NCBI GenBank assembly: GCA_038059415.1
Contig: JBBTJN010000033.1
Location: 9,330 to 73,329, forward strand
DNA: 64,000 nt
Direction of reading: 5' to 3'
Source: Elusimicrobiota bacterium
Lineage (GTDB): Bacteria > Elusimicrobiota > Elusimicrobia > UBA1565 > UBA9628
Positions within the stretch are counted from its first letter, which is position 1, and every line of letters starts with the position of its first letter. Positions 5,387 to 48,618 of the stretch are shown here, in pieces. The notes beneath the pieces are model-generated. The model searched no databases. It was not told where the DNA came from and saw nothing but the letters and a program-made list of their open reading frames with translations. The translations under genes and the position numbers were made by a program.

Positions 5387-5980
5387 ATGGCGGCGATGCT
5401 GTTGGCGTCCGTCGGCGAACTCAACTCCGAGAGCGTGGTTCTGACCACCTATTACCCCGCGCCCTCCGGCGTGTACACAAGCATGATCACCACGGGATCT
5501 ACGATACTTGCTCGTAATTCGAACAGTGTTGTTATCAATTCGTTGGGCACGGCGCCTGTATCCAATGCTAACCTCAAGTTGGGTGTCAATGGGGGGGTGG
5601 CCGTGGGATCATACTGGAACCAGACTGCCCCCACCCCGGCCAATGGGCTCATCGTCAGCGGCCGCGTGGGCGTGGGGATTGCGACGCCGGCCACAGCTCT
5701 CCATGTCGTCGGCCACACCTATATCAACGCTTCAGGTTGCAGCAGTTGGCCTATCACGACAACATCAGCAGACGGCATTGTGTGCATGCCTGGTTCTTAC
5801 GCGACTTTCCAACCCGGCGTCTACATCGAGGGTACCACCTACAACTACTTGCCGCTCCCCCGTCTGACAGACAGCGGTGGTACTGTGCGAAAATTTGCCG
5901 GAATGACCGCGGCCAGTTTGCCTGTTGCTATGCCCATCAGCTATGACCCAGGTATCAAGGCCTTGTGTTGCCCTAAATGA
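5387..5980 (+). CDS. Hypothetical secreted protein, in a noticeably lower-GC segment.
   Basis: The track ORF 5060..5980 overlaps the rSAM gene at its 5' end. The internal start MAAMLLASVGE (an alternative GTG lies at 5312) gives a hydrophobic N-terminus. Motifs such as GRVGVGIATPATALHV recur in fibre-like hypothetical proteins. Confidence 0.3.
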   Translation: MAAMLLASVGELNSESVVLTTYYPAPSGVYTSMITTGSTILARNSNSVVINSLGTAPVSNANLKLGVNGGVAVGSYWNQTAPTPANGLIVSGRVGVGIATPATALHVVGHTYINASGCSSWPITTTSADGIVCMPGSYATFQPGVYIEGTTYNYLPLPRLTDSGGTVRKFAGMTAASLPVAMPISYDPGIKALCCPK

Positions 5981-9667: not shown

Positions 9668-9685
9668 ATCATAGACGAACGGGGT

Positions 9686-10789: not shown

Positions 10790-10796
10790 ATAGGGT

Positions 10797-10813
10797 TTGG
10801 CTGCAGTGTTGCG
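10797..10813 (+). promoter_or_regulatory. Candidate sigma-54 promoter TGGCTGcagtgTTGCG (-24 GG / -12 GC) upstream of the regulator and hxs genes.
   Basis: It matches TGGCAC-N5-TTGC with correct GG/GC spacing, and the GC lies 12 nt before the ATG at 10825. Coordinates are +/-2. Confidence 0.45.
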
Positions 10814-10824
10814 AAGAGGGACTT

Positions 10825-11118
10825 GTGCCCAGAACTCGTTGCTCTTTCCAGCCCATCGACAGCGATGCGGCGCGCCTGCTCAAACTGCTGGGCGCCAGGC
10901 GTATGGCTGCAATTCAGGCCGCCTTGGGCGGCAGGCGGATTTGGATTCCCAAGAGCGGCATCAACCCGCGTTGCGCCGTCTGCGGCCTTCGCGATGAGTG
11001 CATACGCGCTTGGCGAAGACAGGGCATGAGCGTCGCGCGCATCGCCAAACGTGTTGGAATATCGGCGAAGACGGTCTACCGCGTCCTCAGCGGCAGTTTC
11101 GCGCCGAGACCGGGATGA
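10825..11118 (+). CDS. Small Mor/C-family-like transcriptional activator with a C-terminal HTH.
   Basis: 97 aa. GRRIWIPK is followed by the C-terminal MSVARIAKRVGISAKTVYRVLSG helix-turn-helix, which is the Mor-like architecture. It lies immediately upstream of hxsD. Confidence 0.4.
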   Translation: MPRTRCSFQPIDSDAARLLKLLGARRMAAIQAALGGRRIWIPKSGINPRCAVCGLRDECIRAWRRQGMSVARIAKRVGISAKTVYRVLSGSFAPRPG

Positions 11119-11217
11119 TTCTCATCTATGGCATAAAATAGAATGGCCGGGACGAGGTTAAGCCGCTACCATAAGCACAGTCTCCCTGCTTTTCGACTTT
11201 CACTCCAAGAGGAACCC

Positions 11218-11865
11218 ATGAGCGCATGCGACCAAGCCGAAATAGCCTTTGATCTCGACGAGAAGCTATACCCTCTCGAGGCCGTCCAGAACGCAATCTA
11301 CGTCTTCACCGACCGCGCTTATGTGCGTGTTGAGCGCTGCGCGCCGGAACGACTCCAGGTCGTCATGACGCTCAAGGCGGGGGCTGCGCCGTCCGCTCAG
11401 AGCGCGTTGAAGGGGGAGTTCGACAACGAGCTCATTCACCAGATTCTCCGTCAGCGCGTCTCAGATTCCAACCAGAAGATCCGCGAGTACATCGTGACCA
11501 AGGCGCTGGTCTCGGCCCTGCCGTCCTCACCAGCGGCCGGATCGTCGCCGGTCGCCGCGCCTGGCGAAGCGCCCTGTCCGGAATGCGTCGAGGCGGAGGG
11601 GGCGCCACCCGCGCCGCCGCAGATCGACGCGGCCCTGGAGAAGGAAATCGACCGGCTCCTGGCCGAGATCGAGAGCGGCGACGGCGCGGCCGATCCCTTG
11701 GGCGTGTCCGTTCCTTGGGAAGAGGCGTTCGGTGCCAAAAGCGGAAGTCCGAAGAAGACAATCTCCGTTCCAGACAAGACAAAGGCTCCCGCCAAGGCGA
11801 CGGTTTCCTCCAAGTCTCGGGCGTCCGCGAGGGTGAAGGCGCCCGCCAAAGAGAAGCGTTCATGA
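11218..11865 (+). CDS. hxsD: HxsD-like protein of the His-Xaa-Ser system, with an extended Pro/Ala/Lys-rich tail.
   Basis: The position is right: immediately upstream of, and overlapping, the HxsB rSAM. The conserved core FDNELIHQILRQ resembles the LLNDYxLRE signature of HxsD. An AAGAGGAA RBS precedes the internal ATG at 11218. Confidence 0.5.
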   Translation: MSACDQAEIAFDLDEKLYPLEAVQNAIYVFTDRAYVRVERCAPERLQVVMTLKAGAAPSAQSALKGEFDNELIHQILRQRVSDSNQKIREYIVTKALVSALPSSPAAGSSPVAAPGEAPCPECVEAEGAPPAPPQIDAALEKEIDRLLAEIESGDGAADPLGVSVPWEEAFGAKSGSPKKTISVPDKTKAPAKATVSSKSRASARVKAPAKEKRS

Positions 11866-13358
11866 GCATCGCCAGGGCCGTCGACATCCCCGTCCTCAAC
11901 CCCGTCAAGACGGGCCCTTTCCGTTTTCGCAAGGTGTCAGGAAAGATGCTGATCACCAACGACTTGGGCCGTCACCATCTTCTTGATGACGCGCAGTTCC
12001 GGCAATTCGTCACCGGGGAGCTCAGGCCGGGCGATGTCCTGTACGAGAGGCTCAAGGTCGACGGCTTCATCCGCGACCAGATAGATTTCGACGCCGTGGC
12101 CGGCGTGTGGGCGCGGCGCAATAAGTTCCTCTGGCACGGCCCGGGCCTCCATGTGATCGTGACGACGCTGCGCTGCAACCACCGCTGCCTCTATTGCCAC
12201 GCCAGCGCGCTCGGCATGGCCGACGCCTCCACGGACATGACCGAGGAGACCGCGCGCAAGGTCGTCGACCGCATTTTTGAAAGCCCCAGCTCCGCGATCA
12301 CCATCGAATTCCAGGGCGGCGAACCGCTGGCGAACTGGCCCGTGGTCAAGTTCGTCGTCGAGTACGCGACCGAGAAGAACAAAATCGCGGGAAAGAGCCT
12401 CTGGCTGAACCTCGTCACGAACTTGAGCCTCATGGACGACGAGAAGCTTGATTGGCTGCTCAAGCGCGGCGTGAACTTCTGCACGTCCATCGACGGGCCG
12501 GCCGCCCTTCATGACCGCAACCGCCCCTGGAGCAAGGGGGCCAGCCACGCCGAGACGGTCAAGTGGTTCAAGAAGATCAATGCAAAGACTCGGAACAAGA
12601 TGTTCCGCATCGACGCGCTGTTGACGGTGACGCGCCTGTCGCTGAGCCAGCCGCGAGAGATCGTGGACGAATATGTTGCGCTTGGCTCGCGCGGCGTGTT
12701 TCTCCGGCCTCTGAATCCCTACGGGATGGCTGTGGCCACTTGGAACAAGATCGGCTACGGTCCGGAAGAGTTCTTGGTCTTTTACGCGAAGGCCCTCGAC
12801 CGGGTACTTGAGGTCAACAAGAAGAGAGGTCTGCGACAGCCTTTTTTTGAGCAAACGGCGCGTCTCTATTTGGCCAAGATCCTGACCGACGACGACCCGA
12901 ACTACCTAGACCTGCGCTCTCCTTGCGGGGCGGGCATAGGTCAGATGGCCTACAACTGGGACGGCTCCGTCTTCACCTGCGACGAGGGCCGCATGCTCAA
13001 CCGGATGGGCGACGATACCTTCCTCATCGGCAAGGTCGGGGAAGGCACCTATGCTGAGTCGGTCGGGCATCCCGTCGTCCGGGCGCTGGCAATCGCCTCC
13101 AACCTCGACAATCAAGTCGAGTGCTCTAAATGCGTCTACAAGCCCTACTGCGGCATTTGCCCAGTCCAATGCTACAAGGACCAAGGCGATATTACTGGAC
13201 GCATGCCGACCAACTCCCGCTGCAAGATCAGCATGGGCATCCTCGACCTCCTGTTCGAGCGCCTTCAGGACAAGCGTAACGAGCGTATCTTCCGATCTTG
13301 GTTGAAAAAGAGGAAGGGCGAGAATGAAAAAGTCGCCGCGCTCTACCAGCGCGGTTAA
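11862..13358 (+). CDS. hxsB: His-Xaa-Ser system radical SAM/SPASM maturase, HxsB-like.
   Basis: The rSAM motif is CNHRCLYC. The C-terminal SPASM domain carries CGAGIG...FTCDEG and CSKCVYKPYCGICPVQC. It sits immediately upstream of the His-Gly/Ala-Ser repeat precursor. Its start ATG overlaps the hxsD stop (ATGA). Confidence 0.8.
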   Translation: MSIARAVDIPVLNPVKTGPFRFRKVSGKMLITNDLGRHHLLDDAQFRQFVTGELRPGDVLYERLKVDGFIRDQIDFDAVAGVWARRNKFLWHGPGLHVIVTTLRCNHRCLYCHASALGMADASTDMTEETARKVVDRIFESPSSAITIEFQGGEPLANWPVVKFVVEYATEKNKIAGKSLWLNLVTNLSLMDDEKLDWLLKRGVNFCTSIDGPAALHDRNRPWSKGASHAETVKWFKKINAKTRNKMFRIDALLTVTRLSLSQPREIVDEYVALGSRGVFLRPLNPYGMAVATWNKIGYGPEEFLVFYAKALDRVLEVNKKRGLRQPFFEQTARLYLAKILTDDDPNYLDLRSPCGAGIGQMAYNWDGSVFTCDEGRMLNRMGDDTFLIGKVGEGTYAESVGHPVVRALAIASNLDNQVECSKCVYKPYCGICPVQCYKDQGDITGRMPTNSRCKISMGILDLLFERLQDKRNERIFRSWLKKRKGENEKVAALYQRG

Positions 13359-13370
13359 GAGGATCGTGAA

Positions 13371-13823
13371 ATGGATGACATGGACAAGAAGAAGGACGCT
13401 TCCAAAGGGGAATTCGTTCCGCGAGTCGCCAAGGACCTCTCCCGTTTTTTGACCAGCGAGGAGGGTAAGATTCTTAAAAAAGACGTGCTCAAGGCGGCGG
13501 CGGTTCTGGGCATCATCGGGGCGGCCATCATGCGCGCGGAGGATCTGCTTGCGCAGTCTCACACCAACGCGATCCACAACTCCGGAAACGCCCCGGCCCG
13601 GCATAGCAGCCACAGCTCTCACGCCAGCCATGCGTCTCACGGCAGCCACGGCAGCCACGGCAGCCACGGCTCGCACGGGAGCCACGGCTCACATGGGAGC
13701 CACGGCTCGCACGGGAGCCACGGCTCGCACGGGAGCCACGGCTCCCACGCCTCGCACGGCTCCCACGGATCCCACGGATCCCACGGATCCCACGGTTCAC
13801 ATGGCAGTCACGGGCAATGGTGA
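13371..13823 (+). CDS. hxsA: His-Xaa-Ser repeat precursor protein, HxsA-like.
   Basis: 150 aa. It has an N-terminal region with a hydrophobic helix ([16 protein letters not shown]). The C-terminus is (H-S/G/A-S)n, about 25 tripeptide repeats, [20 protein letters not shown]...GSHGQW. Confidence 0.8.
13602..13811 (+). repeat. About 23-25 tandem 9-nt repeats (CAC GGN AGC and variants) encoding His-Gly/Ala-Ser.
   Basis: Directly visible as cacggcagccacggcagccacggctcgcacgggagc... Boundaries are approximate. Confidence 0.85.
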
Positions 13824-15720
13824 GGCCAGCCGCCAACGACGCGCCGGCCTGATACGTCTGGCGCGGACCGCAGCGAAGGCGGTCCGCGACGCGGGGGTGG
13901 TCCCGGCGCGAGCATGCATTCGTGTCGATCCCTCCGTTGACGCACCCGTCTGCGTGTGGAGGGCCCTGCCGAGGGCCGGACGAGCCGCAGAATTCCTGGT
14001 GCCGCCGCCTTTGCTCGATGCGGACGCCGGTCCGCGCCTCGCGGGTCTGCTTTCGGTCGCTCTGGCGCGGGCGGGAAACGGATCGTCATACCCCGCTTTA
14101 CCGACCGCTGCCGCCGTGCAGGTTCTCCTTTTTCGCAGCCTTCTCGAGGCGCCGGGCAAGGAAGGAGCGGATCGTCTCAACCAGGGGACATTGTATCTCG
14201 CCTCGGCGTTGCGCGCGGCCGGAGCGGAGGTCGTCCTTTCCGACGCCAAGGTCTCCCGCTTCGCTCGCGAGCCGCGAGAACGAGAGGACCTCGCCCGCCT
14301 GCTCAAAGCCAATCCGGACATCACCTTGGTCGCGCTGAGCCTGTACGATGCCTACTTCGAGGATGCCGCAGCCCTGGTGAGCTTCTTGCGCGAACGCACG
14401 AGAGCCCGGATCGCGATCGGGGCGCTCATGCCCACCCGCGACCCGGAGTCCGCCCTCCTTCATCTGCCGGGCGTCGACTTCGTCTGTCGGGGAGCCGGCG
14501 AGGAGATCCTTCCACGGTTGGCCGCGTTAGCCTCCGTTTGTCCGAGGAGCGCCTTCGACGAGGCCGCCCAAGGGGCGCTGCTCGCCATGGACGGCGTGCT
14601 GGCCGTCGACGACGGGCGTTCGTCCTATTGGGCAGGGGCCGAGGACATCCTGCGCGTCCCCGATCTCGATGCCTCGGCTCTCGACTTCTCGTTCGTGGAA
14701 CGCCGCGACGTTCAATCAGGGCCGACGTTCTGCCTCTCGAGGGGCTGCGGGAGCGCCTGCCACTTCTGCACCTCCCCGGATCAAGGACGCTTTCACGGCA
14801 AGAGCGCCGTCGAGGTCGGGCGGGTGCTGGCCGGGTATGGACGCCGGCTCAAGGAGCTTTATGGGTCCTGGAGCGCGGCTCCGGACGACGCCTTCGCAAT
14901 TGGATTTTATGACGACGACTTCCTGTCCGACGCGCCGCGGGCGTTGGCCGTTTTTGACGTCGTGCGCCGTTCGCCTTTCCATCTGCGCTTTCTACAGGCG
15001 AGCATTCGAGCTTTCTTCCGGCGCGGCAAGGGCGGCGCGATTGGGGGCCTCGACGAGAGCCTGCTTGATGCGCTGTCGCCGGAACTCTTCGTGCCGAAGC
15101 TCGGGCGAGGAAAAGCCTCCCGTGGTCCCCAGCTCTATCTGGGCACCGAGAGCTTCTGCGACGCGGAGCTAGCGCGCCTGGGCAAGGGTTATGGCGTGGC
15201 ACAGGTGGAGGACGTGGTCCGAGCCCTCTCGCGACGGGGATTGAGCCAAGCCCACCACTTTATCGCGACGAACGCCCGTACCCGCCCCGAGGATGTGCTC
15301 GATAGCCTCGGGCGCATCGTGCGCCTGCGCGATGAGTGCGGCATGGATTTCGGCGTGCTCGAGCCCGTAATCTCCCATCTCGTCTCCTTCCCCGGGACCG
15401 CAAGCCTGCGCGCGCTTCAGCGCGAGAGGCTGGATGCGTGCGTCGAGTCGCGCGGCGTCCTGGCCGTTGCGGGCTTCCCGGAATTCGATTATCCTCTCAC
15501 CGTCCGGGAGGTGCCCGCCGACGCAGACGTCGCGGCTTGGGTGGAGCGGCTGAAAATGAAGGGCGCCGGGTTGGATTGGGAGAACGAGTTCGAGGGATTG
15601 CTGTTTGAATGGCTCCTGCTCAGTGAGAGCCTCAGCGCGCGCGGCGCGCAACCCGAGCGCGCCGCGAATCTTCGCCGTGCCGTGGACGCGCAGGCGGGCC
15701 TCATGGGGACGGCACCATGA
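13801..15720 (+). CDS. B12-binding-domain radical SAM protein (class B-like) with an N-terminal extension. The start is uncertain.
   Basis: A Rossmann-like B12-binding region (VQVLLFRS...[13 protein letters not shown]...) is followed by CGSACHFC (CxxxCxxC) and a GTESFCD GxES-type motif. The track ORF starts at 13549 inside hxsA. An ATG at 13801 overlaps the hxsA end. Confidence 0.55.
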
Positions 15721-16721
15721 GCCGCCATCGAAGCCTGAAGGCTAATCTTCAGCTGTTCGTGACCAGACGCTGCCAGCTGCGCTGCCGCTACTGCCCTATC
15801 CTGAAGGGGGAGTCCATCATGCCGCTGTCGACCGCGCTCAGGGGCGCCGACCTGCTCCTGGGGCACGGCTCCTCGCGTTTGCGCCTTGACTTCGGCGGAG
15901 GGGAGCCGTTGCTGAACTTCGACGTGGTGCGAGAGGTCTCGGACTACGCCCTGCGCCGCGCCAAGAACCTGGGCAAGGACCTGCGCTTCTACATGGTCAC
16001 CAACGGCGTCCTGATCGACGATGCTTTCCTGGAGTGGGCGCGCGACCGGAAGGTTCTTTTGGAATTCAGCATGGACGGAACGCGCGAGGACCATAACCGC
16101 TACAAGTCCGCCTACGACCGCGGGCTCGATCCTTACGCTGCCACGCGCGCGGGGGTGGAGCGCGCACAGCGCTCCGGGATCGCGCATTTCGTCATCATGG
16201 TGGCCAGCCCGGCCAATGCGAGCCGCCTCGCGGAGAATTTCGAGCATCTCTTCGACATCGGCGTGCGGCGCGTGGACCTGAGCTACGCCGTCGGCGGCGT
16301 CTGGTCCGCGCAGGATGAGGCGGTCTACTTCGAGCAGGTGTCGCGCGTCCTGACCCGCCACGCCCGCGCGCTCGACTCCGGCGAGATCCATCTCGGCAAC
16401 GCGCGTCAGCGTCTCGAGCCGACCATCCTTAACAGCGAGCTGATGGTGGATCCCGACGGATCGCTGCATCAGATGAGTGAGTGGATGTTCGAAACGACTC
16501 CTGCGAAGACGACACCGCCGTTCCCCGTGGGTACGCTCGACACCGTCAAGAACATCAACGTCCTGCGCTGGAGCCGATTCCATTCCTACTACACCCTCGC
16601 GAAAATGCACGAGGGCAATTCGGAGGTTCAGGCGGCTCTGCTCAACAACATCTCCTTCGGACTGCGCGTCGGCAAGTTCTTCCGCGCGGCCGTGGGGCGC
16701 TTAGGGAAGGTGCCCGCGTGA
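15717..16721 (+). CDS. Radical SAM protein, a candidate HxsC-type partner maturase.
   Basis: The motif is CQLRCRYC and the glycine-rich motif is GGGEPLL. The C-terminal LNSELMVDPDG segment is shared with paralogs at 16718 and 20108. Confidence 0.7.
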   Translation: MSRHRSLKANLQLFVTRRCQLRCRYCPILKGESIMPLSTALRGADLLLGHGSSRLRLDFGGGEPLLNFDVVREVSDYALRRAKNLGKDLRFYMVTNGVLIDDAFLEWARDRKVLLEFSMDGTREDHNRYKSAYDRGLDPYAATRAGVERAQRSGIAHFVIMVASPANASRLAENFEHLFDIGVRRVDLSYAVGGVWSAQDEAVYFEQVSRVLTRHARALDSGEIHLGNARQRLEPTILNSELMVDPDGSLHQMSEWMFETTPAKTTPPFPVGTLDTVKNINVLRWSRFHSYYTLAKMHEGNSEVQAALLNNISFGLRVGKFFRAAVGRLGKVPA

Positions 16722-17935
16722 GGAGTCTCTACGAAGCCTCGATGGCTCGCGCCGAGCGCGCGCTCCTCAACGCGGACAAGGACGGCGGCGTTTGCGCGCG
16801 CCGGACCTTGGCGGCCCTCGACGCGGCTCTTTTCGAGGCCTTGCGCCGGGCCGAGTCCGCTCCGGATGGCTGCGCCCGCGCCGCGCGCCGCGCCGAGCTC
16901 AGGGGCTGGGCCTTCTACCGGCGTCGCCTGCTCAGCCGCCTCATTAAGACCGGATTGCGACCCAACGGCGACCACCTGCGGGCGCTTTTCTCGGGCTCGG
17001 GGAGCGACCGGCTGATCCTGCTCGTCACCCACGCCTGCCAGCTGCGCTGCGCGTATTGCCGCGTTCGCAAGTATGGCGCGACGATGGATGCCGAAACGGC
17101 GGATGCCGGGGTGCGCTGGCTGATGAGCTCGCTGCGTCGGGACGTGGAGCTTCAGTTCTTCGGGGGCGAGCCGCTCCTGGCCCTGCCCATCCTGCGTCGC
17201 GCGGTCGCCCTTGCAGAAACCTCGGCCCGAAACGCAGGGAAAAGCGTGCGCTTTCTGTTGACGACCAACGGCCTGGCGCTTGATGAAAAGGCGATTTCTT
17301 TCTTGCGGGAGCATCACTTCACCGTGGAGGTGAGCTGCGACGCAACGATGAGCGCCCAGGACGCCCAACGCCCGATGGCGAAGGGTACGAGTTCGTGGTC
17401 TGCGCTGCGTTCCGGTATGGAGCGCCTGCGGCGGGCCGAGATTCCCCATCAGGTCATCGCCGTGGTGCTCCCGGAAGACGCGGCTTGCGCGCACGAGCGC
17501 GTCGCGGCTCTGGCGGAGATGGGCCACCGGCGCATTCAGATCAACTATGCTCTCGGCCGCCACTGGACCGATGACCAGGCAGCTGCCTTGCGCGAGTCCA
17601 TGGACCGCGCCGCAGCCGCCTCCAAGCGCCTGGGAGTCGAACTGGTCAACCTAACCGTGAAGCGCCGCGAGCCGGTAGTGCTCAACAGCGAACTTACGGT
17701 GGACTGCGACGGGACGGTGTTCCGCGAAACCGGGGTGTGCCTGGAGGAGGATTTCCAGGAGATGAAGAAGCGCTTTCGGGTGGCCGACATTAGGAATGCC
17801 GGGCTCTTCGAAACCTACGGGGCCACGCCCTTCGACAACTTCGCCATCCTCGCCTCGGCGTACGGCCGCGGAGAGATGCGCAGCATCTTGCTCAGCAATC
17901 TCGAGCTTGGACGTTCGTTTGCGAGGGCGAAGTGA
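16718..17935 (+). CDS. Radical SAM protein, paralog of the 15717 gene.
   Basis: The motifs are CQLRCAYC and FGGEPLL, and LNSELTVDCDG is shared. The GTG at 16718 overlaps the upstream stop (GTGA). An alternative ATG lies at 16745. Confidence 0.65.
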   Translation: MRSLYEASMARAERALLNADKDGGVCARRTLAALDAALFEALRRAESAPDGCARAARRAELRGWAFYRRRLLSRLIKTGLRPNGDHLRALFSGSGSDRLILLVTHACQLRCAYCRVRKYGATMDAETADAGVRWLMSSLRRDVELQFFGGEPLLALPILRRAVALAETSARNAGKSVRFLLTTNGLALDEKAISFLREHHFTVEVSCDATMSAQDAQRPMAKGTSSWSALRSGMERLRRAEIPHQVIAVVLPEDAACAHERVAALAEMGHRRIQINYALGRHWTDDQAAALRESMDRAAAASKRLGVELVNLTVKRREPVVLNSELTVDCDGTVFRETGVCLEEDFQEMKKRFRVADIRNAGLFETYGATPFDNFAILASAYGRGEMRSILLSNLELGRSFARAK

Positions 17936-20118
17936 AGGTGCTCCTTCTCAACCCGCGCAACCCCGATCCGCCTCCGGTCTACTTCGGCGCGCCCTACGGC
18001 CTGTCCTTGCTCGGAGCCATCCTGAATTCCCGCGGCGTCGAGGTCGTCGGGCGCGACTATACCCATTTTCCCCAGGCGGCCATGCTCGGCGACGCGTCCG
18101 CCGTAGTCGAGAGGGAAGGTCCGGACCTCGTGGGCATTTCCTGCCAAAGCTCCAACCGCGGGGCGGCCGTCGCCTTAGTTCGGCGTCTCAAGGAAGAATC
18201 GCCCAAACTTCGCGTCGTGGTGGGTGGGCCCTTCGCCAGCACCGACCCCGAACTGGTCCTGCGCCGCACCGGAGCCGACTGGGTCGTTGTTGGAGACGGC
18301 GAGGAGACTTTGCCCGAGCTCGTCATCGCGCTCTCCCGCGGCGGCGACGCGCGCGAGGTCGCGGGCCTGCTTTGGTCCGAGCGCGGCAAGGTTCGTCGGT
18401 CGGCGCAACGGGAGCCCTTTTCGGATCTCGACTCATTGCCCGATCCCGACTTCGACCTGTTCGAGGCCGCGTCCAACCTGAGCCGATTTCAGAGGCCGCG
18501 CGCGGAGGCTCTGGCCGCGCCCGTCGGGGCGGCGGGCCGTCCGTGCCTGGTCATGCATAGCGCCATCATGCTCCTGAGTTCGCGAGGTTGCGTGTATCGC
18601 TGCGTGTTCTGCCCCATGAGCACCTTCAAGGGCAAGCCCCGCCTGCACTCTCCCGCCTATTTCGTCCGTCAGGTCTCCGTGATGGCCCGGCGCTACCGCT
18701 GGCGCGATTTCGTCTTCGGCGACAACTACTTCACCCGTGACCGAAAGCGCGTACTGGAGATCTGCGCGGGGCTGCGCCGTGAGGTGCCCGGCATCCGCTG
18801 GATATGCATGACGCGCTCAGACGCTATGGACCCGGTGTTGGCTCGCGAGATGGCCGCCGCGGGCTGCCGCGAAATCTCCTACGGCATCGAGAGCGGTTCG
18901 CCGCGGGTGCAGAAGGCCATCGGCAAGAGCCTGGACCTCGACCGCGTGCCCGCCGCTTTCGCCGCCACGCGCGAGGCGGGGATGCAGACGGTGCTCATGC
19001 TCATGGTGGGCAACCCCGGAGACAATCTTGAGACGACGCGCGAGACGGCCGACTTCCTGCGCCCAATCCAGGCGGATCGGATACAGGTGCACACGACCAA
19101 GGTCTATCCCGGCACCGCCATTCACGCGACGGCGGCGGCGGCCGGAGTGATCCCTCCCGACTTTTACGAAAGCGACGAGCATCAGCCTCCGCTGTACACG
19201 GTGGAGCGCAGCGCCGCCGAGCTTTCGCAGATGCGAGTTCTCCTGCCCTCCCGCACGCATTATATTGAGGCAAATTCCGGCTGTGTCAACGGCTGCTGTT
19301 TGTTGCGCCGTCCCGCCGCCCGCAAGAAGATCGCCTTATCCGCCGCGTTGGCGCAGACCGCGTTCCGGGCGGAACGGGGCGTACTGGGGGGGGGGGAGTC
19401 TCTCCTCATCGCGGACCTGGACAAGGCGCTTGACGACGCCGAGGCCCTGCAGGTGTTCGACCTGAGCTTGTACACCACGGCTAGGCCCCTGGCCGACGCG
19501 CGCAGGGTCTCGGGTCTGCGCGCGCGCAAGGAGATGCGCCGCCTGGTCGTACCTCTTCTGTCTCCCGAGGCAGCGCGTCACGATGCGCGCGCCCGCGTGC
19601 CCGGGGCCCTGGCCCAGACGAAACTTGGTCTGCGGCACTGGCTGCGAAGCGGCGGCGAAATTCTGGCCTGGCTCATACCCATGAGGGAAGACCTCGCCGA
19701 ACTCGGGACATGGACGCGTCGCCTGGCTGGCGAGGGCGTGCGAGAGGCGCTTCTCATTCATCGCGAGCCGCCTCCCGGCTGGGGCGGCCTGCCTTTGGAG
19801 GACACCCCGCGCCTGGAGCCCTTCGCCGCCGCCGCGGCCGAGGCCGCCTTCCGCGCCAAAGAGGCGGGCCTGACGTTGAGCGTGTTCGGTCTGCCTCCCT
19901 GCCTCTGGGATGGGAAGCTGGCTCCACGGCATGAGGACCGCGCTCTCTACGACGAGGTGGTCTCTGACGCGGCGGAGGCGGTGACTGCCCGTTCGCGGCG
20001 CCTCCTGCGGCAGGCCTTCAGCCCGTGTTGTTCCGGTTGCGCGCGGCGGCCTTCGTGCGACGGCGTCTGGGGCGATTATCTCGCCCGGCACGGGGAGGAG
20101 GAGCTTCATGCCCTCTAA
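17932..20118 (+). CDS. B12-binding-domain radical SAM protein with a roughly 300-aa C-terminal extension.
   Basis: The N-terminal B12-binding fold is MKVLLLNPRN...LVGISCQSS. The rSAM motifs are CVYRCVFC and SYGIESGS. The tail is CSGCARRPSCDGVWGDY...EEEL. The GTG start overlaps the upstream stop. Confidence 0.75.
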   Translation: MKVLLLNPRNPDPPPVYFGAPYGLSLLGAILNSRGVEVVGRDYTHFPQAAMLGDASAVVEREGPDLVGISCQSSNRGAAVALVRRLKEESPKLRVVVGGPFASTDPELVLRRTGADWVVVGDGEETLPELVIALSRGGDAREVAGLLWSERGKVRRSAQREPFSDLDSLPDPDFDLFEAASNLSRFQRPRAEALAAPVGAAGRPCLVMHSAIMLLSSRGCVYRCVFCPMSTFKGKPRLHSPAYFVRQVSVMARRYRWRDFVFGDNYFTRDRKRVLEICAGLRREVPGIRWICMTRSDAMDPVLAREMAAAGCREISYGIESGSPRVQKAIGKSLDLDRVPAAFAATREAGMQTVLMLMVGNPGDNLETTRETADFLRPIQADRIQVHTTKVYPGTAIHATAAAAGVIPPDFYESDEHQPPLYTVERSAAELSQMRVLLPSRTHYIEANSGCVNGCCLLRRPAARKKIALSAALAQTAFRAERGVLGGGESLLIADLDKALDDAEALQVFDLSLYTTARPLADARRVSGLRARKEMRRLVVPLLSPEAARHDARARVPGALAQTKLGLRHWLRSGGEILAWLIPMREDLAELGTWTRRLAGEGVREALLIHREPPPGWGGLPLEDTPRLEPFAAAAAEAAFRAKEAGLTLSVFGLPPCLWDGKLAPRHEDRALYDEVVSDAAEAVTARSRRLLRQAFSPCCSGCARRPSCDGVWGDYLARHGEEELHAL
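19386..19396 (+). repeat. Homopolymeric G tract of about 11 inside the 17932 gene.
   Basis: ctgggggggggggag encodes GGGE. The exact length is +/-1. Confidence 0.6.
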
Positions 20119-21976
20119 GAAAATACTAAACACGACGCGCTCGGTCATGCTCATGGCCACGTACGAGTGTCAGTTGCGCTGCGCCTACTGCCAGATCCGG
20201 CGTGGGCCCCGGCGCATGGACGAGCGCACGGCCTTGCGCGGCGCGGACCTTCTTCTGTCGTCGCATGCCGACCATCTCCTCCTCAACTTCTTCGGCGGCG
20301 AGCCCCTGTTGGTCTGGGACCTGGTGCGCAAGACGGCGGCCTATGCCCGCGAGCGCCGCGGGGGCCGCCCCTTGCGCATCAACCTCACCACCAACGGCCT
20401 TCTGCTCGATGACAAGAAGATCGAATTCCTTCAAAGTGTGGACGGCTATGTGCACCTGAGCCTCGACGGCCCCGCCGAGGCCAACGCTTCGCGCCTGCGC
20501 TCCGCCGGTCCCGGCGCGCAGAAGGCGATGCAAAGTGCGCTCCGCCGTCTCGCGGCCTCCGGCCTGCCATACCATGTCAACGCCGTCGTCGATCCCGTGC
20601 GCGCGGCCTCCTTCGACTGCGACTTGCTCGCCCTCGAGGATCTGGGCGCGCGCCGTATCCAGTTCGGCTATCAGGTCGGCGTGCTTTGGAGCAAGCGGGC
20701 CATCGGCGACCTTCTCGCGGCGCTCGACCGCTACGCGGCGCGCGGGAAAGCCGAGCTTAACAACCGCACCTCGGACAGCGAGCCGGTTATGCTCAGCCAG
20801 GAGGTCATCGTCGATACCGACGGCCGCATTTATTGGGACGGAGGGCTCTTTCTAGAGGCGACCTTGCCGAAGGTGCGTGAGGCGCTGCTCTTGGGATGCC
20901 TCGACGCGTCGCCCGACGTTGACGCCTTCGAGCGAGAGCCGCGCAAACCCTACGAACGGCTGACGACCGCCTACCCGGCGAACACGAAGGGCGGTCATAT
21001 CATCCTCAATAACGTCAAGGTGGGCCTGGCCCTCAAGCGCCATTGGGTGGGCCAGCGCGGCAACGAGGACCCCGCCATCCGGCGCGGCGTGGTCCAGGCG
21101 CGGTTCACCGAGCAGGTCCGCTTCCTGAAAGAGCGCATGCCGGGGCTCGACCGCGTATTCCTCTTCATGAAAGGCGGCTGCGACCTGGACTGCCTGTTCT
21201 GCCGCAACAAGCCGGAGAAGGATTATCAGACGCTTGAAGAAATAGACGCTTGTCTCGCCGAGAACGCCGTATTGCGTCGTGCGAAAATCGCTTTAGTCGG
21301 CAACGAACCCCTGGCTCATCTACAGATCGCCGACATCGTGAAGTTATGCCGCCACTGGGGCTTCACCGACATCGAGGCGATGACATCCGGTCTGCGCCTG
21401 GAGGCGCTGGCGCGTCCATTGGCCGATGCCGGCATGAGTTCCTACGCTTTAGCTCTTCACGGCTCGACGGCCAAAGTCCATGACGCCGTGGTCCGCCATG
21501 ATGGCGCGTTCGACGCCGCCTTGCGCGGCGCCGAGGGGGCGCAGGCGGCCGGTTCGCGAGTCTTTGTGCATGCCAGCGCCTGCCGGGCGAACCTATCCGA
21601 TCTCCCAGCCCTCGAAAAGCTGGTCCGCGAGCGCGCCTGGCCGTTCTCGATTCACCCGCTGCGTCCCAAGGACGCCGACGGCATGAACGAGCCCTACGAC
21701 AAGATCGCGCCGGACTATGCCGAGCTTCGCGCCGCTTTGACCGGCCGCGTTAGATCGCTGACCGGCTTTCCCTCCTGCGTGGCCCGCGCCGTGCAGGGCC
21801 GAGCTTCGTGCCCGGCCGCGCAGATCGCCGATTCCATGCGGCTTTACCTCCATCATCAGGCCTTCGTGAAGCCCGCGACATGCTCCGCGTGCCCGGAGCG
21901 CGAGGATTGCGTGGGCACATTCGAAGAGCATCTCCGCTCCCGTCCCGCGGAGAAAAAGGAGCTGACTTTCTCATGA
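20108..21976 (+). CDS. Tandem double radical SAM domain protein.
   Basis: Two CxxxCxxC motifs are present: CQLRCAYC near the N-terminus and CDLDCLFC at about residue 360. The N-terminal half is paralogous to the 15717 and 16718 genes. The tail is CSACPEREDCVGTFEEH. Confidence 0.75.
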   Translation: MPSKKILNTTRSVMLMATYECQLRCAYCQIRRGPRRMDERTALRGADLLLSSHADHLLLNFFGGEPLLVWDLVRKTAAYARERRGGRPLRINLTTNGLLLDDKKIEFLQSVDGYVHLSLDGPAEANASRLRSAGPGAQKAMQSALRRLAASGLPYHVNAVVDPVRAASFDCDLLALEDLGARRIQFGYQVGVLWSKRAIGDLLAALDRYAARGKAELNNRTSDSEPVMLSQEVIVDTDGRIYWDGGLFLEATLPKVREALLLGCLDASPDVDAFEREPRKPYERLTTAYPANTKGGHIILNNVKVGLALKRHWVGQRGNEDPAIRRGVVQARFTEQVRFLKERMPGLDRVFLFMKGGCDLDCLFCRNKPEKDYQTLEEIDACLAENAVLRRAKIALVGNEPLAHLQIADIVKLCRHWGFTDIEAMTSGLRLEALARPLADAGMSSYALALHGSTAKVHDAVVRHDGAFDAALRGAEGAQAAGSRVFVHASACRANLSDLPALEKLVRERAWPFSIHPLRPKDADGMNEPYDKIAPDYAELRAALTGRVRSLTGFPSCVARAVQGRASCPAAQIADSMRLYLHHQAFVKPATCSACPEREDCVGTFEEHLRSRPAEKKELTFS

Positions 21977-22923
21977 CCGCCCCCGGGATCCTTGCGGCCT
22001 CCCGGCGTTTGGAGTTGCATCTCTCCTACGTCTGCGGCCAGCGCTGCGCCTTCTGCTCGGAGAGCGTGCGCATGGACCGATGGCGACACGCGCCGCTCAA
22101 GGGCGAAGAGATATCCGCTGTCCTCATCAAACGCCGCAAGGCGGGCTTCAACCACGTGACCTTCACCGGAGGGGAGCCTACGGCGCAGGCGCTCCTGCCG
22201 GCCGCGCTCGCTGCGGCCCGTAAGCTCGGCTTCAACACATATCTGACCACCAACGGCGGGCTCTTCGCTCAGGAGAAATACGCCCGGGAGGTCCTGCCGC
22301 TCGTCGATGAAATCTGCCTGTCCGTTCACGGCCCCGACGCCGAGACCCACGATGCCGCGGCCGACACGCGGGGCTCCTTTGATCGGGCGATGAAGGCCCT
22401 GGCCAACATCGAGGCACACGGCGCGAGCACCTACCTTCTCACCAACACCGTCGTCACGCGACTCAACTGGGACCGTCTTGAGGACACCTTGGCCCTGCTG
22501 ACCTCTCATCCTAAGGTCCGGCATTGCCTCCTCTCCAACGTCGCTCCGGAAGGCCGCGCGTCCGGCGCTTACAAGTCCTTGGTCGTGCCGCTGTCGAAGT
22601 GGCGTCAGCGAGTGCCTGCGCTCGCCCGCCCCTTCGAGACAAACGGCGTGGTCCTGCGGCTGTTCGGCCTGCCTCTGTGCGTCCTAGGCGGGCGGCTGGA
22701 ACTGTCCAATGACGCCCATTATTCCCCGCGTGTGACCGTGGAGCGCCGCGGCGCGAAAGGCAGGCCCGGCCTGAGCGCAATCGCCAGCGTCGACGCCTCG
22801 CGCCGCCGCAGCAAGCCCGGAATCTGCCGCTCCTGCGACGGGCGTGGAGATTGCGCCGGCGTATTCGACCGCTACCTCGCCGCTTACGGAAGTTCGGAGC
22901 TCGCGCCCCAGAGGGCGAACTAA
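21973..22923 (+). CDS. Radical SAM protein.
   Basis: The motifs are CGQRCAFC and TGGEPT. The tail is CRSCDGRGDCAGVFDRYLAAYGSSEL. The ATG overlaps the upstream stop (ATGA). Confidence 0.75.
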   Translation: MTAPGILAASRRLELHLSYVCGQRCAFCSESVRMDRWRHAPLKGEEISAVLIKRRKAGFNHVTFTGGEPTAQALLPAALAAARKLGFNTYLTTNGGLFAQEKYAREVLPLVDEICLSVHGPDAETHDAAADTRGSFDRAMKALANIEAHGASTYLLTNTVVTRLNWDRLEDTLALLTSHPKVRHCLLSNVAPEGRASGAYKSLVVPLSKWRQRVPALARPFETNGVVLRLFGLPLCVLGGRLELSNDAHYSPRVTVERRGAKGRPGLSAIASVDASRRRSKPGICRSCDGRGDCAGVFDRYLAAYGSSELAPQRAN

Positions 22924-23864
22924 TGGCCACGCTCGCATATCTACAGGTTGCGCGCATCTGCAATCAAAAATGCCTGTTCTGTTCCAACCCGGAGAACGGG
23001 CGCGTGATCTCCTGGAAGGAAGCGACGGATCTGGTGGATTGCTTTGCCAAGGAGAAGGCCGCCGGAGTGATCATCACTGGGGGCGAACCGACCTTGTTCG
23101 ACCGTTTGCCGGAGTTGGTGGCCTACGCCCTCAAGAGGGGATTGCCGCCGCGTCTCATCACCAACGGTCAGCGAGTCTGCAGGCCTGATTACCTCAAGGC
23201 GCTCGTCGACGCCGGGCTCAGCCACATGCATATCTCCGTGCATTCGGCTAGGCCCGAGGTGCAGGGAGAGCTCACGGGCAATAACAACTCTCTTGCGAAC
23301 ATACTGCGCGCCCTGGAGAACGCCGGGAAGCTGGGGGTGCGCGTGGACATCAACAGCGTCATCAATAGTCGCAACGCCGGGCACCTGAGCTACACGCCGC
23401 GCTTTCTCGTTGAGCGCTTCCCGTTCCTTTGCCACTTCGTCTGGAACAATCTGGACCCGCAGATGAATGCCGCCTCGCTCAATGCCGAACTCGTGCCCAA
23501 GTTGAGAGCATTCGAGGTGGAACTCCATCGCGCGATGACCTGGCTGGCCAAGGCCGGGAAAAGCTTTCGCGTCGAGCGCGTGCCGCTCTGCTTCATGTCC
23601 GATTTCGGTCATTTCTCCACGGAGACGCGCAAGTTCGTCAAGAACGAGGGCCGAGACATCTATTTCTTGGACGAGAAGGGACGCAAGAAACAGGACAAAA
23701 GCTCCTGGAGTTACGACAAGGCGCCGCGCTGCAAGGCGTGTTCCGTCAATAAGATTTGCGCCGGGTTGTATCAGATGGACGTGTACTACTCTTCCTCGGA
23801 GCTCTGTCCCATACTGACTCCGGCAGACGAGGTGGTCGCGAAGGTCCGCGCGGAGGCGTCATGA
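22923..23864 (+). CDS. Radical SAM protein, paralog of the minus-strand gene at 25671..26609.
   Basis: The motifs are CNQKCLFC and TGGEPTL. The tail is CKACSVNKICAGLYQMDVYYSSSEL. Confidence 0.75.
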   Translation: MATLAYLQVARICNQKCLFCSNPENGRVISWKEATDLVDCFAKEKAAGVIITGGEPTLFDRLPELVAYALKRGLPPRLITNGQRVCRPDYLKALVDAGLSHMHISVHSARPEVQGELTGNNNSLANILRALENAGKLGVRVDINSVINSRNAGHLSYTPRFLVERFPFLCHFVWNNLDPQMNAASLNAELVPKLRAFEVELHRAMTWLAKAGKSFRVERVPLCFMSDFGHFSTETRKFVKNEGRDIYFLDEKGRKKQDKSSWSYDKAPRCKACSVNKICAGLYQMDVYYSSSELCPILTPADEVVAKVRAEAS

Positions 23865-24817
23865 GCGATCGGGTCGATCTTAAGGTCGGGTTTCGCTGCA
23901 ACAACTACTGCCAATTCTGCGTGCAGGGCGATAAGCGCGAGCGCCTGCCGGTCAAGCCCGAGGCGGAACTGATCAAGTCCCTGGAAGAAGGGAGAGCGGG
24001 GGGCGCAATCGGCGTCGTCATTACAGGCGGCGAGCCCACCCTCCACGAGGGAATCGTCAAGATCGCGCGCGCGGCGCGCGACCTCGGCTACACCCTCATC
24101 CAGGTGCAGAGCAACGGGCGCACCTTCTGCTACGAAGATTTCTGCAAGCGCCTCATCGACGCGGGCGTCAACGAGTTCGGGCCGTCCCTGCACGGCTCGA
24201 CGGCTAAAATACACGATTATCTTACGGGATCGCCCGGGGCCTTCATGCAGGTGGTCTCCGGCATACGCAACCTCAAACGCCTTAAGCAGCGCGTCATCAC
24301 CAACTCGGTGATCACCAAGGTCAACTACCGCGACCTGCCCTCCTTGGCGACCTTGCTCGTCGCCTTGGATGTGGAGCAGTTCCAGTTTGCCTTCATGCAT
24401 ATGAGCGGACGCGCGGGGGAGAACAAGGAGTGGCTGACCGCGCGCAAGAGCCTCATCGAGCCGTACGTGAAAAAAGCGCTCGATGTCGGCATCAGGGCGG
24501 GCAAGATCGTGATGACCGAGGCCATCCCATACTGTCTGATGAATGGCTACGAGGCCTATGTCGCCGAGCAGATCATACCGCGAACGCGCATCTACGACGC
24601 GGACTGCGTGATTGCCGACTACACGCGTACGCGCATCGACGAGGGCAAGAGCCGCGGGCCGCGGTGCGTCGAGTGCGACTGGCACTTCAAATGCGAGGGG
24701 CCGTGGAGGGAATATCCCGAGCTGTTCGGCTGGGACGAGTTCGTGCCGGTTAAGAAGGCCGCGCCCGCGCCGAAGAAGGCGGCGCCCGTCGCCAGAGCGG
24801 AGAGAAAGAAACGTTGA
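23861..24817 (+). CDS. Radical SAM protein with a Lys/Ala/Pro-rich C-terminus.
   Basis: The motifs are CNNYCQFC and TGGEPTL. The tail is CVECDWHFKCEGPWREYPELFGWDEF. Confidence 0.75.
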   Translation: MSDRVDLKVGFRCNNYCQFCVQGDKRERLPVKPEAELIKSLEEGRAGGAIGVVITGGEPTLHEGIVKIARAARDLGYTLIQVQSNGRTFCYEDFCKRLIDAGVNEFGPSLHGSTAKIHDYLTGSPGAFMQVVSGIRNLKRLKQRVITNSVITKVNYRDLPSLATLLVALDVEQFQFAFMHMSGRAGENKEWLTARKSLIEPYVKKALDVGIRAGKIVMTEAIPYCLMNGYEAYVAEQIIPRTRIYDADCVIADYTRTRIDEGKSRGPRCVECDWHFKCEGPWREYPELFGWDEFVPVKKAAPAPKKAAPVARAERKKR

Positions 24818-25674
24818 GGAGCGAGGATCTGTTGGTTCTGGTCCTCACGCGCCGCTGCGAGCGGCGGTGCGGTCATTGCCCGCAGTCCTTCGACGAGGCC
24901 GACATGTCCGAGGGCACTCTCGACGCGGCATTGGAGGGCCTGCTGCCGCAACTGCGCCCTCCCGCCCGCGTCAAGCTGTTCGGCGGCGAGCCCCTGCTGC
25001 GCCCGGACCTCGTGACGCGCGCCCTTGAGCGCCTGGCGGTCCTGGCTCCGGGCACGGCCGTGGAACTTCCCACTCACGGCACGGGACTGTCCGCGGTGGA
25101 GGCGCTTCTGGCTCGCCGTCCCGAGGTGGAGGTGTTTGTCAGCTTCGCCGATCCCGCGGCGGCCCGCCTGTCGGGCGTGGTGCACAACTTCTTGATCCCG
25201 CCCGGAGAGGCCCCGGCCTCAACGGCGCGCCGCATGGCTCTGGCGCGCAAGCGCGGCTACAACCGTTTCAACTTCCTGCCCGCTTACTTCGTGCCCTGGA
25301 CGCCCGCTCAACTCAAGGGCCTGGCCTCCTGCTTTGCCGCGGTGCGCAGGGTGCTCGACTGCTGGTCCGCCGCAGGCCGCTGCGCCGAGGTGGTCAATCT
25401 CTCTCGGCGCGGGACGACGCCGCTGTACAACGATGGCCTGGTCGTCGACACCGACGGCGAGGTGTACAACTCGAATCTGATTTTGGCCGCCGCCGTTAGG
25501 CCTCACAGGGGGAGGCTGCATCTGGGCCGGGTACACGAGCCCGGCAATCTGTCCGCGCGACCGATCGCCGAAGCCGCGCAAGTCATGCGGGACTCCTTTC
25601 CCGCGGATGTCTTGGCGGCAACGTCGGCGGTAGACGCGGAGCTGACCGCGTTCTGCCTCAGGCTCTCCCGCTAG
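24814..25674 (+). CDS. Radical SAM protein.
   Basis: The motifs are CERRCGHC and FGGEPLL. The TTG start overlaps the upstream stop. Confidence 0.65.
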   Translation: MRSEDLLVLVLTRRCERRCGHCPQSFDEADMSEGTLDAALEGLLPQLRPPARVKLFGGEPLLRPDLVTRALERLAVLAPGTAVELPTHGTGLSAVEALLARRPEVEVFVSFADPAAARLSGVVHNFLIPPGEAPASTARRMALARKRGYNRFNFLPAYFVPWTPAQLKGLASCFAAVRRVLDCWSAAGRCAEVVNLSRRGTTPLYNDGLVVDTDGEVYNSNLILAAAVRPHRGRLHLGRVHEPGNLSARPIAEAAQVMRDSFPADVLAATSAVDAELTAFCLRLSR

Positions 25675-48572: not shown

Positions 48573-48618
48573 AGGTCCTAGATGAGAGAGGCGGTCAGAG
48601 GATTTACAGGAGCTGCCA

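Follow-up and report, generated by a model that had tools for sequence, protein, structure and literature searches.

A His-Gly-Ser repeat peptide and an extended radical SAM gene set in a nitrogenase-like gene island of a groundwater Elusimicrobia genome

What is a His-Xaa-Ser (Hxs) gene core doing at the head of nine radical SAM (rSAM) genes, and what might so many radical enzymes make of one repeat peptide? We asked this of a 64-kb stretch of contig JBBTJN010000033.1 from a groundwater Elusimicrobia genome, which we call the window, always meaning the whole stretch. It contains an operon that reads HxsD-HxsB-HxsA and then R1 to R9, the nine rSAM genes. We favour, with moderate confidence, a pathway resembling those of peptides that ribosomes make and that are modified after translation (RiPPs), in which the HxsA repeat peptide would be modified many times and which would form one arm of a larger pathway. 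We read the operon in this way because its core families reach curated cut-offs, the CX3CX2C motif is present in all of its rSAM proteins, the genes overlap, the His-Xaa-Ser run is the only one in the window, the arrangement recurs in other genomes and the precursor leader is conserved. The repeat peptide and its maturases appear, moreover, to belong to an island of rSAM and nitrogenase-like (NFL) genes.

The canonical relative of this operon has a known role. Canonical HXS is an antiphage system in which HxsB, HxsC and HxsD mature HxsA, adding 8 Da on an S-H-x-S-S motif, and in which HxsC binds HxsD (Li et al. 2026, PMC13128918). The preliminary description of the window, which called the product and function of the His-Xaa-Ser system unknown, is outdated on this point. 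The +8 Da change, seen in the E. coli version, corresponds to the gain of one C and the loss of four H and is the sole Hxs chemistry reported (PMC13128918). The genes are laid out HxsD-HxsB-HxsC-HxsA in 99.6% of HXS systems (Li et al. 2026, PMC13128918), an order that we also checked in one locus (L133).

The Hxs core and its repeat precursor

Gene families were scored against NCBIfam curated cut-offs and Pfam gathering scores, with canonical HXS represented by models TIGR03976-03979 (Haft & Basu 2011). All three core genes lie on the plus strand and pass: HxsD (11143-11865, likely start ATG 11218) scores 59.9 bits against a TIGR03976 cut-off of 50, HxsB (11862-13358) 510.5 bits against 370 for TIGR03978, and the 150-aa HxsA4-type precursor HxsA (13371-13823) 112.1 bits against 55 for NF038313. 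These hidden Markov model checks bear out the HxsD-HxsB-HxsA assignment made in the preliminary description. The HxsD domain occupies residues 38-125 of a 240-aa open reading frame (ORF) and is followed by a Pro/Ala/Lys-rich tail; homologs in relatives bear PF27806 HxsD. HxsB, a radical SAM/SPASM peptide maturase, carries CX3CX2C and a SPASM-type Cys array, C421-x2-C-x5-C-x2-C-x3-C. It is 39% identical, over 94% of the length, to the annotated hxsB of Aeromonas plasmid NC_009349, and its closest solved structure is CteB (5wgg).

HxsA carries an array of His-Xaa-Ser units. Where about 25 His-Gly/Ala-Ser repeats were first estimated, there are 24 units, 23 of them contiguous (residues 78-146); X is Gly in 18 units, Ala in three, Ser in two and Asn in one. 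At the DNA level the array is a 9/18-bp tandem repeat, and no other HxS run occurs anywhere in the window. Ahead of it stand FLTSEEGKI, a hydrophobic segment and HTNAIHNSG; behind it the protein closes with HGQW. Across 51 precursor homologs the array has between 4 and 41 units, most of them His-Gly-Ser, and a Trp or Tyr stands at the C-terminus of almost every sequence. Two leader types divide these homologs. The first, in Elusimicrobia, candidate phyla radiation (CPR) and related sequences, has FLTSEEGK[IM] and a hydrophobic segment; the second, in most Myxococcota-type sequences, is a different leader that lacks the hydrophobic segment. A conserved leader, a repeated core and a gene placed beside that of its maturase are what is found in rSAM-matured RiPPs, and all of these are found here.

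The same array (13602-13808, + strand), read in the Gly-X-Y register as (Gly-Ser-His)n, matches Pfam Collagen with 37.3 bits against a gathering score of 27.2, the sole Pfam match of HxsA. This match may be compositional only, or it may reflect a triple-helix propensity. We set a collagen-like triple helix aside: membership of the Hxs family accounts for the register, and in canonical HxsA the X position is not Gly.

Other peptide pathways offer partial parallels. Triceptides, in which HaaB and HtkB link the C2 of His to C-beta (PMC11499958), share the three-residue register, with the partner two positions after the aromatic residue or His, and an rSAM/SPASM maturase encoded beside the precursor. 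In contrast, HxsB falls below the cut-offs of the cyclophane maturase models (YhhB 53.4/445, GrrM 47.3/310 and XyeB 40.2/450 bits), the Hxs change is +8 Da whereas a cyclophane is -2 Da, and no known triceptide cluster has ten rSAMs or NFL genes. The PqqA/PqqE pair and the mycofactocin pair MftA/MftC likewise combine a small ribosomal peptide with rSAM/SPASM enzymes and a small peptide-binding partner. Those systems pair one core site with one rSAM, whereas the present one has 23 repeats and many rSAMs, and scores against their models are far below cut-off.

Nine downstream radical SAM genes and the HxsC question

Nine rSAM genes follow hxsA on the plus strand, and Pfam and NCBIfam scans together with the Cys motifs show that the preliminary description had their number and types right. 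R1 (13801-15720) is a B12-binding protein (50.6 bits) with a divergent rSAM core (Radical_SAM 14.4 bits, motif CGSACHFC). R2 (15717-16721) resembles the N-terminal half of HxsB/PapB, lacks SPASM and has three Cys only; R3 (16718-17935), of the same family, which we call family A, has an N-terminal extension of ~95 aa. R4 (17932-20118) is a class B (cobalamin) rSAM with B12-binding and Radical_SAM scores of 74.3 and 83.4 bits and a C-terminal HxsC-like domain ending in CX2CX5C; its sub-cut-off matches include ApyD (160 bits) and the RiPP C-methyltransferase TIGR03975 (104 bits), and its structural matches are AprD4 (6fd2) and TsrM (6wte). R5 (20108-21976) is a double rSAM with two Radical_SAM stretches and two CX3CX2C motifs, its N-half belonging to family A and its C-half to an HxsC-like family B. 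The single-domain family B protein R6 (21973-22923) has CX2CX5C and scores 94 bits with HxsC4 and 83.4 with HxsC, both sub-cut-off; R7 (22923-23864), also HxsC-like, scores 87.5 bits with HxsC. R8 (23861-24817) is the rSAM nearest to canonical HxsC, with 147.8 bits against 500 for HxsC4 and 106.2 against 267.9 for HxsC. The last operon gene, R9 (24814-25674), encodes a divergent rSAM with CERRCGHC and a Radical_SAM score of 28.7 bits against a gathering score of 29.5. Every rSAM of the Hxs operon carries CX3CX2C.

The tight coupling claimed for these genes is real. Start and stop codons overlap by 4 nt at seven junctions, by 11 nt at R4/R5, by 1 nt at R6/R7 and by 23 nt at HxsA/R1, so the range along the gene string is 1-23 nt. 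An independent assembly from the same aquifer (L001, ENA ERZ1292622) has the identical gene order and the same overlaps, and its independent gene calls agree, including a 639-aa call for R1. Contigs from Hainich well H52 carry the window's genes. The locus is, as proposed, much larger than the canonical four-gene Hxs system: D-B-A and then nine rSAMs.

All-against-all comparison of the window proteins sorted the rSAMs into two families. Family A comprises R2, R3, the N-half of R5, R14 and, distantly, R9. It resembles the N-terminal half of HxsB/PapB-type peptide maturases, lacks SPASM and has a common C-terminal domain of its own. Family B comprises R6, R7, R8, R10m, the C-half of R5, R11m, R13, R15, the C-termini of the two carbamoyltransferase fusions CT1 and CT2, and the tail of R4, all with a common C-terminal CX2CX5C. 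For the family B members with an rSAM core that were scanned (R15 was not), HxsC or HxsC4 ranks first or second among the NCBIfam matches, always below cut-off; weak sub-cut-off matches to PqqE and MftC also occur among family B proteins. Paralogs are 25-35% identical, the exceptions being R7/R10m (60%), R13/R15 (51%) and CT1/CT2 (50%). These identities point to an old divergence and to putatively distinct roles.

These comparisons change how the absence of HxsC is to be read. The preliminary description took HxsC to be missing and the nine rSAMs to be mere additions, a view overturned by the NCBIfam matches and CX2CX5C motifs, which make R6, R7, R8 and the C-half of R5 HxsC-family paralogs. 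R6, R7, R10m, R11m and R13 score below R8 against HxsC and HxsC4. The canonical HxsC of the Aeromonas plasmid has the same CX2CX5C, and of all window proteins it matches R8 best (27% identity, 65 bits). In other phyla, R8 orthologs (43-65% identity) are the commonest neighbour of HxsB. R8 is thus the probable HxsC equivalent of this clade, and on these homologies we regard the system not as one without HxsC but as one with a diverged equivalent and many paralogs.

Set beside canonical HXS, the locus shares HxsD, HxsB and HxsA at curated cut-offs, HxsC-like rSAMs with CX2CX5C, and the expected logic of cytoplasmic rSAM maturation of a repeat protein. It differs in gene order, D-B-A-R1 to R9 with no protein at the HxsC cut-off; in its hosts, which are Elusimicrobiota, Myxococcota and CPR rather than Pseudomonadota; and in the nitrogenase-like and carbamoyltransferase genes around it.

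The nitrogenase-like island and its recurrence

The Hxs/rSAM operon is one arm of an island of ~55 kb that spans ~4.2 to 61.5 kb of the window. The island holds four sets of NFL genes and two ferredoxin-carbamoyltransferase-rSAM fusions. In the window, 16 rSAM genes pass the Pfam Radical_SAM gathering score and four more are sub-threshold, some 20 in total. The operon limits first drawn were too narrow on both sides: conserved partners (U306, P367 and CT1, described below) lie upstream, and a convergent rSAM/carbamoyltransferase/nitrogenase-like operon directly abuts downstream. There the stop of R9 overlaps that of the minus-strand gene R10m within a CTAG (25671-25674), with neither intergenic space nor terminator. 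R10m (25671-26609, -, start ATG 26609), an HxsC-like rSAM and paralog of R7, is the last gene of the convergent operon, and the convergent layout is kept in a locus whose HxsB is 63% identical (L135).

The minus-strand operon (30103-38789), annotated with Pfam, begins with a NifH-NifD-like fusion and continues through an NflK-like gene, U337 and an NflD-like gene to R11m, an HxsC-like rSAM whose best matches are HxsC4 (90.7 bits) and HxsC (75.2 bits). The plus-strand operon (38930-54262), annotated in the same way, reads R12sp (an rSAM/SPASM protein), two NflD/K pairs, R13, R14, NflH, U400, a second NifH-NifD-like fusion and NflK; the best family matches of R13 are again HxsC4 and HxsC. The fusions join a complete NifH-like ATPase to a NifD/K-like (Oxidored_nitro) part and measure 783 aa (36438-38789, -) and 798 aa (50595-52991, +), and the plus-strand operon also has a separate NifH (48619-49449). 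Matches to Fer4_NifH and Oxidored_nitro in two operons, with many rSAMs nearby and some of them B12-binding, are the content by which group VI NFL-rSAM clusters are recognised. Fusions of the NifH-NifD/K type recur in three other loci (L091, L134, L135).

Two further genes of these operons deserve description. U337 (34338-35351, -) has no rSAM motif and consists of a segment like the C-terminus of R1 (41% over 75 aa) and a family A C-terminal domain (30% identical to that of R2); its make-up suggests what is left of two rSAM paralogs, either degenerate or in an accessory role. U400 (49498-50700, +) is a polytopic membrane protein of 400 aa that scores 17.5 bits with Peptidase_A24 against a gathering score of 26.5. 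Its D21...N29 and W-x-A-G-D-A-K, the two catalytic Asp motifs of A24 prepilin-type peptidases, are identical in 16 aligned homologs. U400 sits in the Nfl operon, not the Hxs operon, and co-occurs with both Hxs and Nfl loci.

Group VI NFL clusters with rSAM suites were described from groundwater Elusimicrobia in 2020 and read as tetrapyrrole reduction (Meheust et al., bioRxiv 10.1101/765248, ISME J). Those clusters agree with the present island in phylum, in habitat and in having several NifH/D/K-like sets and many rSAMs, some B12-binding; their spread over Elusimicrobia, Myxococcales and CPR agrees with that of the present HxsB clade, and GWA2_69_24, a genome named by Meheust et al., carries an Hxs locus (L011). 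They differ in that the preprint never uses the word 'peptide', whereas the present island has a repeat precursor together with HxsB and HxsD. The function of group VI NFL was still listed as unknown, and its gene context judged unhelpful, in a 2026 review (PMC13474568).

Relatives were collected by a scan with one genome per GTDB species, which yielded 80 HxsB loci (44-86% identity) that we annotated by BLAST with the window proteins, counting neighbour genes within ±10 kb. They come from Elusimicrobiota, Myxococcota, CPR/Patescibacteria, Omnitrophota, Bdellovibrio and Spirochaetes. HxsD is present in 59, an ORF with an HxS run in 48, at least three extra rSAMs in 34 and at least five in 15. 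The locus is not one of a kind: the same architecture occurs in three phyla. The nearest HxsB homologs (48-88% identity) are almost all in metagenome-assembled genomes (MAGs) of Elusimicrobia/Elusimicrobiota, where the PGAP annotation already says HxsB. In one relative (L003), R1-R2-R3-R4 keep the order and overlaps of the window; another (L005) has six rSAMs, none of the B12 type. Two copies of HxsB, of HxsD or of both per locus were seen among L011 (Elusimicrobia GWA2_69_24), L035, L060, L063 and L070.

Hxs and NFL genes also meet outside the window. Hxs, rSAM and Nfl genes form single same-strand strings in three loci (L010, L018 and L090/L091), that of L010 (JAJXVH010000012.1), a compact operon of 13 genes, reading P367-HxsD-HxsB-HxsA-R13-NflH-NflD-NflK-R11-R7-U400-R8-R8'. 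On three further contigs Hxs and Nfl genes are found together (L008+L134, L135 and L131), and Nfl genes adjoin HxsB in L050, L051 and L063. The set R11m, R7, U400 and R8 accompanies Hxs alone at some loci and Nfl alone at others. Two HxS-repeat precursors stand beside NflH/NflK in L131. We considered the TP_methylase of the L091 operon as diphthine-synthase-like, and hence as a candidate for histidine modification, and dropped it: there were only weak RsmI-type matches (70 against 168 bits).

Those NflK homologs that are listed with a source name are all from Elusimicrobia MAGs, including GWA2_66_18, except P0230 (Deltaproteobacteria). A deltaproteobacterial locus (L087, JGI 3300038945) has an NflD/K pair between two SNF2-family helicase genes, without NifH or rSAM; a few kb upstream there is a PIN/RHH toxin-antitoxin pair. 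This context resembles a defence island more than a biosynthetic locus. In L089 a stand-alone carbamoyltransferase adjoins the Nfl genes.

Upstream of the Hxs operon lie three genes, all on the plus strand. U306 (5312-5977 within ORF 5060-5977) is a conserved secreted protein with a likely GTG start at 5312 and a GGGAGGG ribosome-binding site. In the alignment a Sec-like signal precedes a strongly conserved mature N-terminus, ELxSESVTLTTYYPAPSGVY..LARD, then come a Gly-rich middle and a C-terminal CCxK, and there is no Pfam match. With BLAST, 12 of the 80 GTDB loci have an ortholog upstream of HxsD, as do L003 and L005, and in Elusimicrobia this upstream position is constant. CT1 (6197-9667) is a fusion of 1156 aa that joins a 2x[4Fe-4S] ferredoxin, a TobZ/NodU-type O-carbamoyltransferase and an HxsC-like rSAM (Carbam_trans_C 206.5, Carbam_trans_N 105, Fer4_10 38.6 and Radical_SAM 33.3 bits; TobZ structure 3ven, 267 bits). 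Its rSAM part has lost CX3CX2C and kept the C-terminal CX2CX5C. In the second such fusion, CT2 (26609-30106, -, ~1160 aa), CX3CX2C is intact; the transferase part of both fusions is also of the TobZ/GdmN type. P367 (9686-10789) has a signal peptide, 16 Cys and a Lys/Glu-rich coiled tail and matches no family; its orthologs lie between U306 and the HxsD position in L003 and L007-L010.

Between P367 and HxsD is a 97-aa helix-turn-helix protein (10825-11118, +) that passes HTH_7 (32.1 bits) and HTH_38 (31.7 bits). Its earlier designation as a Mor-like regulator finds sub-threshold scores only, 19.2 against 24.9 for Mor PF08765 and 25.5 against 34 for BcepMu gp16 TIGR04111, and the gene is kept only in the closest relative (L007), so that it is not a conserved part of the system. 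In the 35-bp gap ahead of it stands a sigma-54-type -24/-12 motif, TGGCTGCAGTGTTGC (10798-10812, +). As a string this motif is not significant; what speaks for the proposed sigma-54-type promoter is placement. The pattern TGGC-N7-TTGC has six exact matches in the window, four of them intergenic and correctly oriented where intergenic sequence makes up 8.45% (P = 6.6e-4). These are at 2549-2563 (-, before moeA), 10798-10812 (+), 38824-38838 (-) and 38894-38908 (+), the last two both within the 140-bp divergent gap between the nitrogenase-like operons. Their positions suggest that the four may belong to a common sigma-54 regulon. Neither an rpoN gene nor an enhancer-binding protein was seen in the window. 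The loose consensus TGGCAC-N5-TTGCW, at up to two mismatches, gave 15 matches where 22 were expected and is uninformative; a scan of 9600-14000 for sigma-70 promoters and terminators gave nothing beyond chance, and an Rfam gathering scan of the entire window found no riboswitch or RNA family.

The island is flanked on one side by the molybdenum cofactor genes MobA and MoeA (485-2409, -) and on the other by the anaerobic ribonucleotide reductase NrdD (61610-63643, +). A PAS histidine kinase (3098-4177) lies near the island edge, followed by an additional rSAM, R0m (4249-5247). At the other edge (58442-61500, +) come an FAD/pyridine-nucleotide oxidoreductase and a protein whose RlmN-like rSAM domain is fused to an isochorismatase domain. 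The same oxidoreductase and RlmN-like rSAM/isochorismatase pair stands directly 5' of the Hxs genes in L005 (GCA_016218575.1, 5307-7816).

The proposed pathway and its alternatives

In the pathway that we propose, of which this would be the central operon, hxsA is the substrate gene: its 150-aa product opens with a conserved leader, carries 23 His-Gly/Ala/Ser-Ser units and closes with an aromatic residue. If homology to the characterised HXS is a guide, HxsB, HxsD and the HxsC-like R8 would install an Hxs-type covalent change on each His-Xaa-Ser unit. Family A (R2, R3, the N-half of R5, and R9), family B (R6, R7 and the C-half of R5) and the cobalamin protein R4, possibly with R1, could then add further radical cross-links, alkylations or methylations to the same array. 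Judging from gene neighbourhoods, the larger pathway would also draw on the carbamoyltransferase fusions, for which Ser hydroxyls are a possible target, on more HxsC-like rSAMs, on U400 as a possible precursor-processing peptidase, and, in this lineage, on the ATP-dependent group VI NFL reductases; all arms are probably under sigma-54 control. Our guess at the end product is a heavily cross-linked His-derived polymer, exported or membrane-anchored.

The link to the nitrogenase-like genes can be stated at two strengths. The pathway probably feeds the NFL reductases. The more specific proposal, that the group VI NFL of groundwater Elusimicrobia and Myxococcota act on a (His-Gly-Ser)n peptide already cross-linked and alkylated by HxsB/HxsC-type rSAM enzymes, for example by ATP-driven reduction of imidazole-derived rings, and not on a tetrapyrrole, is tentative, and we lean somewhat towards doubting it.

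Several observations weigh against the RiPP-like pathway or against its link to NFL. The characterised HxsA has a signal peptide, ~5 basic repeats and a peptidoglycan-binding domain, whereas the precursor here has 23 mostly HGS repeats, no such domain and another leader. No gene reaches the cut-off of HxsC (TIGR03977) or HxsC4 (NF038332), R8 coming nearest. Because the paralogs are so diverged, their chemistry is not readable from homology. Among the 80 HxsB loci, 14 have no extra rSAM and 32 no HxS run in a simple ORF scan. Starting from NflK instead, Hxs was present in the fetched 10-kb flanks of 2 of 41 metagenome loci and of none of L087-L089, although this is a weak test, the window's own HxsB being ~20 kb from the nearest Nfl gene. 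NFL may therefore have a different target, or the Hxs part may be dispensable. With so few NflK loci having Hxs nearby, we do not call the Hxs-NFL link general, and our confidence in it is lowered.

The strongest competing explanation, though an unlikely one in our judgement, is an elaborated HXS-type antiphage or envelope effector: a matured His-rich protein that is exported and blocks phage DNA entry as in E. coli, the extra rSAMs serving to diversify it. Experiments have shown that canonical HXS, with HxsA/B/C/D as its parts, acts in defence, and the HxsB, HxsD and HxsA found here are true homologs of its parts. The basic N-terminal region and hydrophobic segment of the precursor are compatible with export or membrane anchoring, and the patchy spread over phyla resembles that of mobile accessory systems. 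Against this, the precursor lacks the peptidoglycan-binding domain, and a compact defence system looks very different from a ~55-kb island with ~20 rSAMs, carbamoyltransferases and four NFL sets. Four genes make up more than 99.8% of HXS systems, and Pseudomonadota hold 99.7% of them (Li et al. 2026, PMC13128918). Nor do the flanks, with MoeA/MobA, the histidine kinase and NrdD, contain defence genes. A PADLOC-DB 2023 scan of HxsD, HxsB, HxsA, R6-R8 and the unknown proteins returned generic viperin-like rSAM matches only and no Hxs/HXS family for these proteins; the scan is silent on defence either way.

Next comes the possibility that the rSAMs and NFL build a tetrapyrrole-type or other small-molecule cofactor, with HxsD-HxsB-HxsA a separate adjoining module. 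It has the standing of a published proposal (Meheust et al.), founded on where NifH falls, close to groups IV and V, and on the B12-binding and HemN_C domains that adjacent rSAMs carry, and it is echoed in the 2026 review. Many Nfl loci, besides, are without Hxs within 10 kb. A B12-binding domain marks class B rSAMs generally, however, and not tetrapyrrole substrates. Translational coupling ties the nine rSAM genes directly to hxsA, the family B rSAMs, including those in the Nfl operons, are HxsC relatives, and the Hxs/rSAM/Nfl strings of L010, L018 and L090/L091 are co-directional. The scanned ORFs of the window also include no tetrapyrrole biosynthesis gene. We consider this explanation distinctly improbable.

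More improbable still, to the point that we give it little credence, is that the His-rich peptide is a metal-binding scaffold or chaperone for an rSAM-built metallocluster of NFL, parallel to NifB/NifEN: poly-His sequences bind metals, the carbamoyltransferase fusions recall HypF-type ligand synthesis (a parallel that we take as a lead only), and the island is rich in Fe-S proteins and lies near MoeA/MobA. Group VI genomes do lack NifB, but group VI NflD/K also lack ligands for complex clusters (PMC13474568), HxsB is a peptide-maturase-type SPASM enzyme whose homolog covalently modifies HxsA, and small CPR genomes hold Hxs and rSAM loci with no Nfl gene nearby.

We return, then, to the RiPP-like modification of the repeat peptide. 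Part of the picture is already on record: the HxsB names that PGAP gives in MAGs, the NCBIfam HxsA4 model and, since 2020, the rSAM/NFL island itself. What appears to be new is to see a ribosomal His-Gly-Ser repeat peptide, together with the enzymes that mature it, as members of that island. In the literature library that was searched, no paper makes this connection, and none ties together nitrogenase-like enzymes, RiPPs and rSAMs, or an Elusimicrobia precursor peptide and rSAMs.

With a repeat peptide and its maturase encoded in one island, and in one operon in L010, L018 and L090/L091, there is a concrete, testable candidate for the NFL substrate. A precursor with 23 near-identical target sites, accompanied by graded HxsC-like paralogs, is also a favourable case for mass spectrometry of Hxs chemistry. 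If the proposal is true, it would give the first nitrogenase-family enzyme in peptide biosynthesis, whether of a RiPP or of a peptide-derived cofactor, and a substrate for the orphan group VI. If the Hxs-NFL link holds, nitrogenase-family reductases would be extended to peptides, and Hxs-type chemistry would be used well beyond phage defence.

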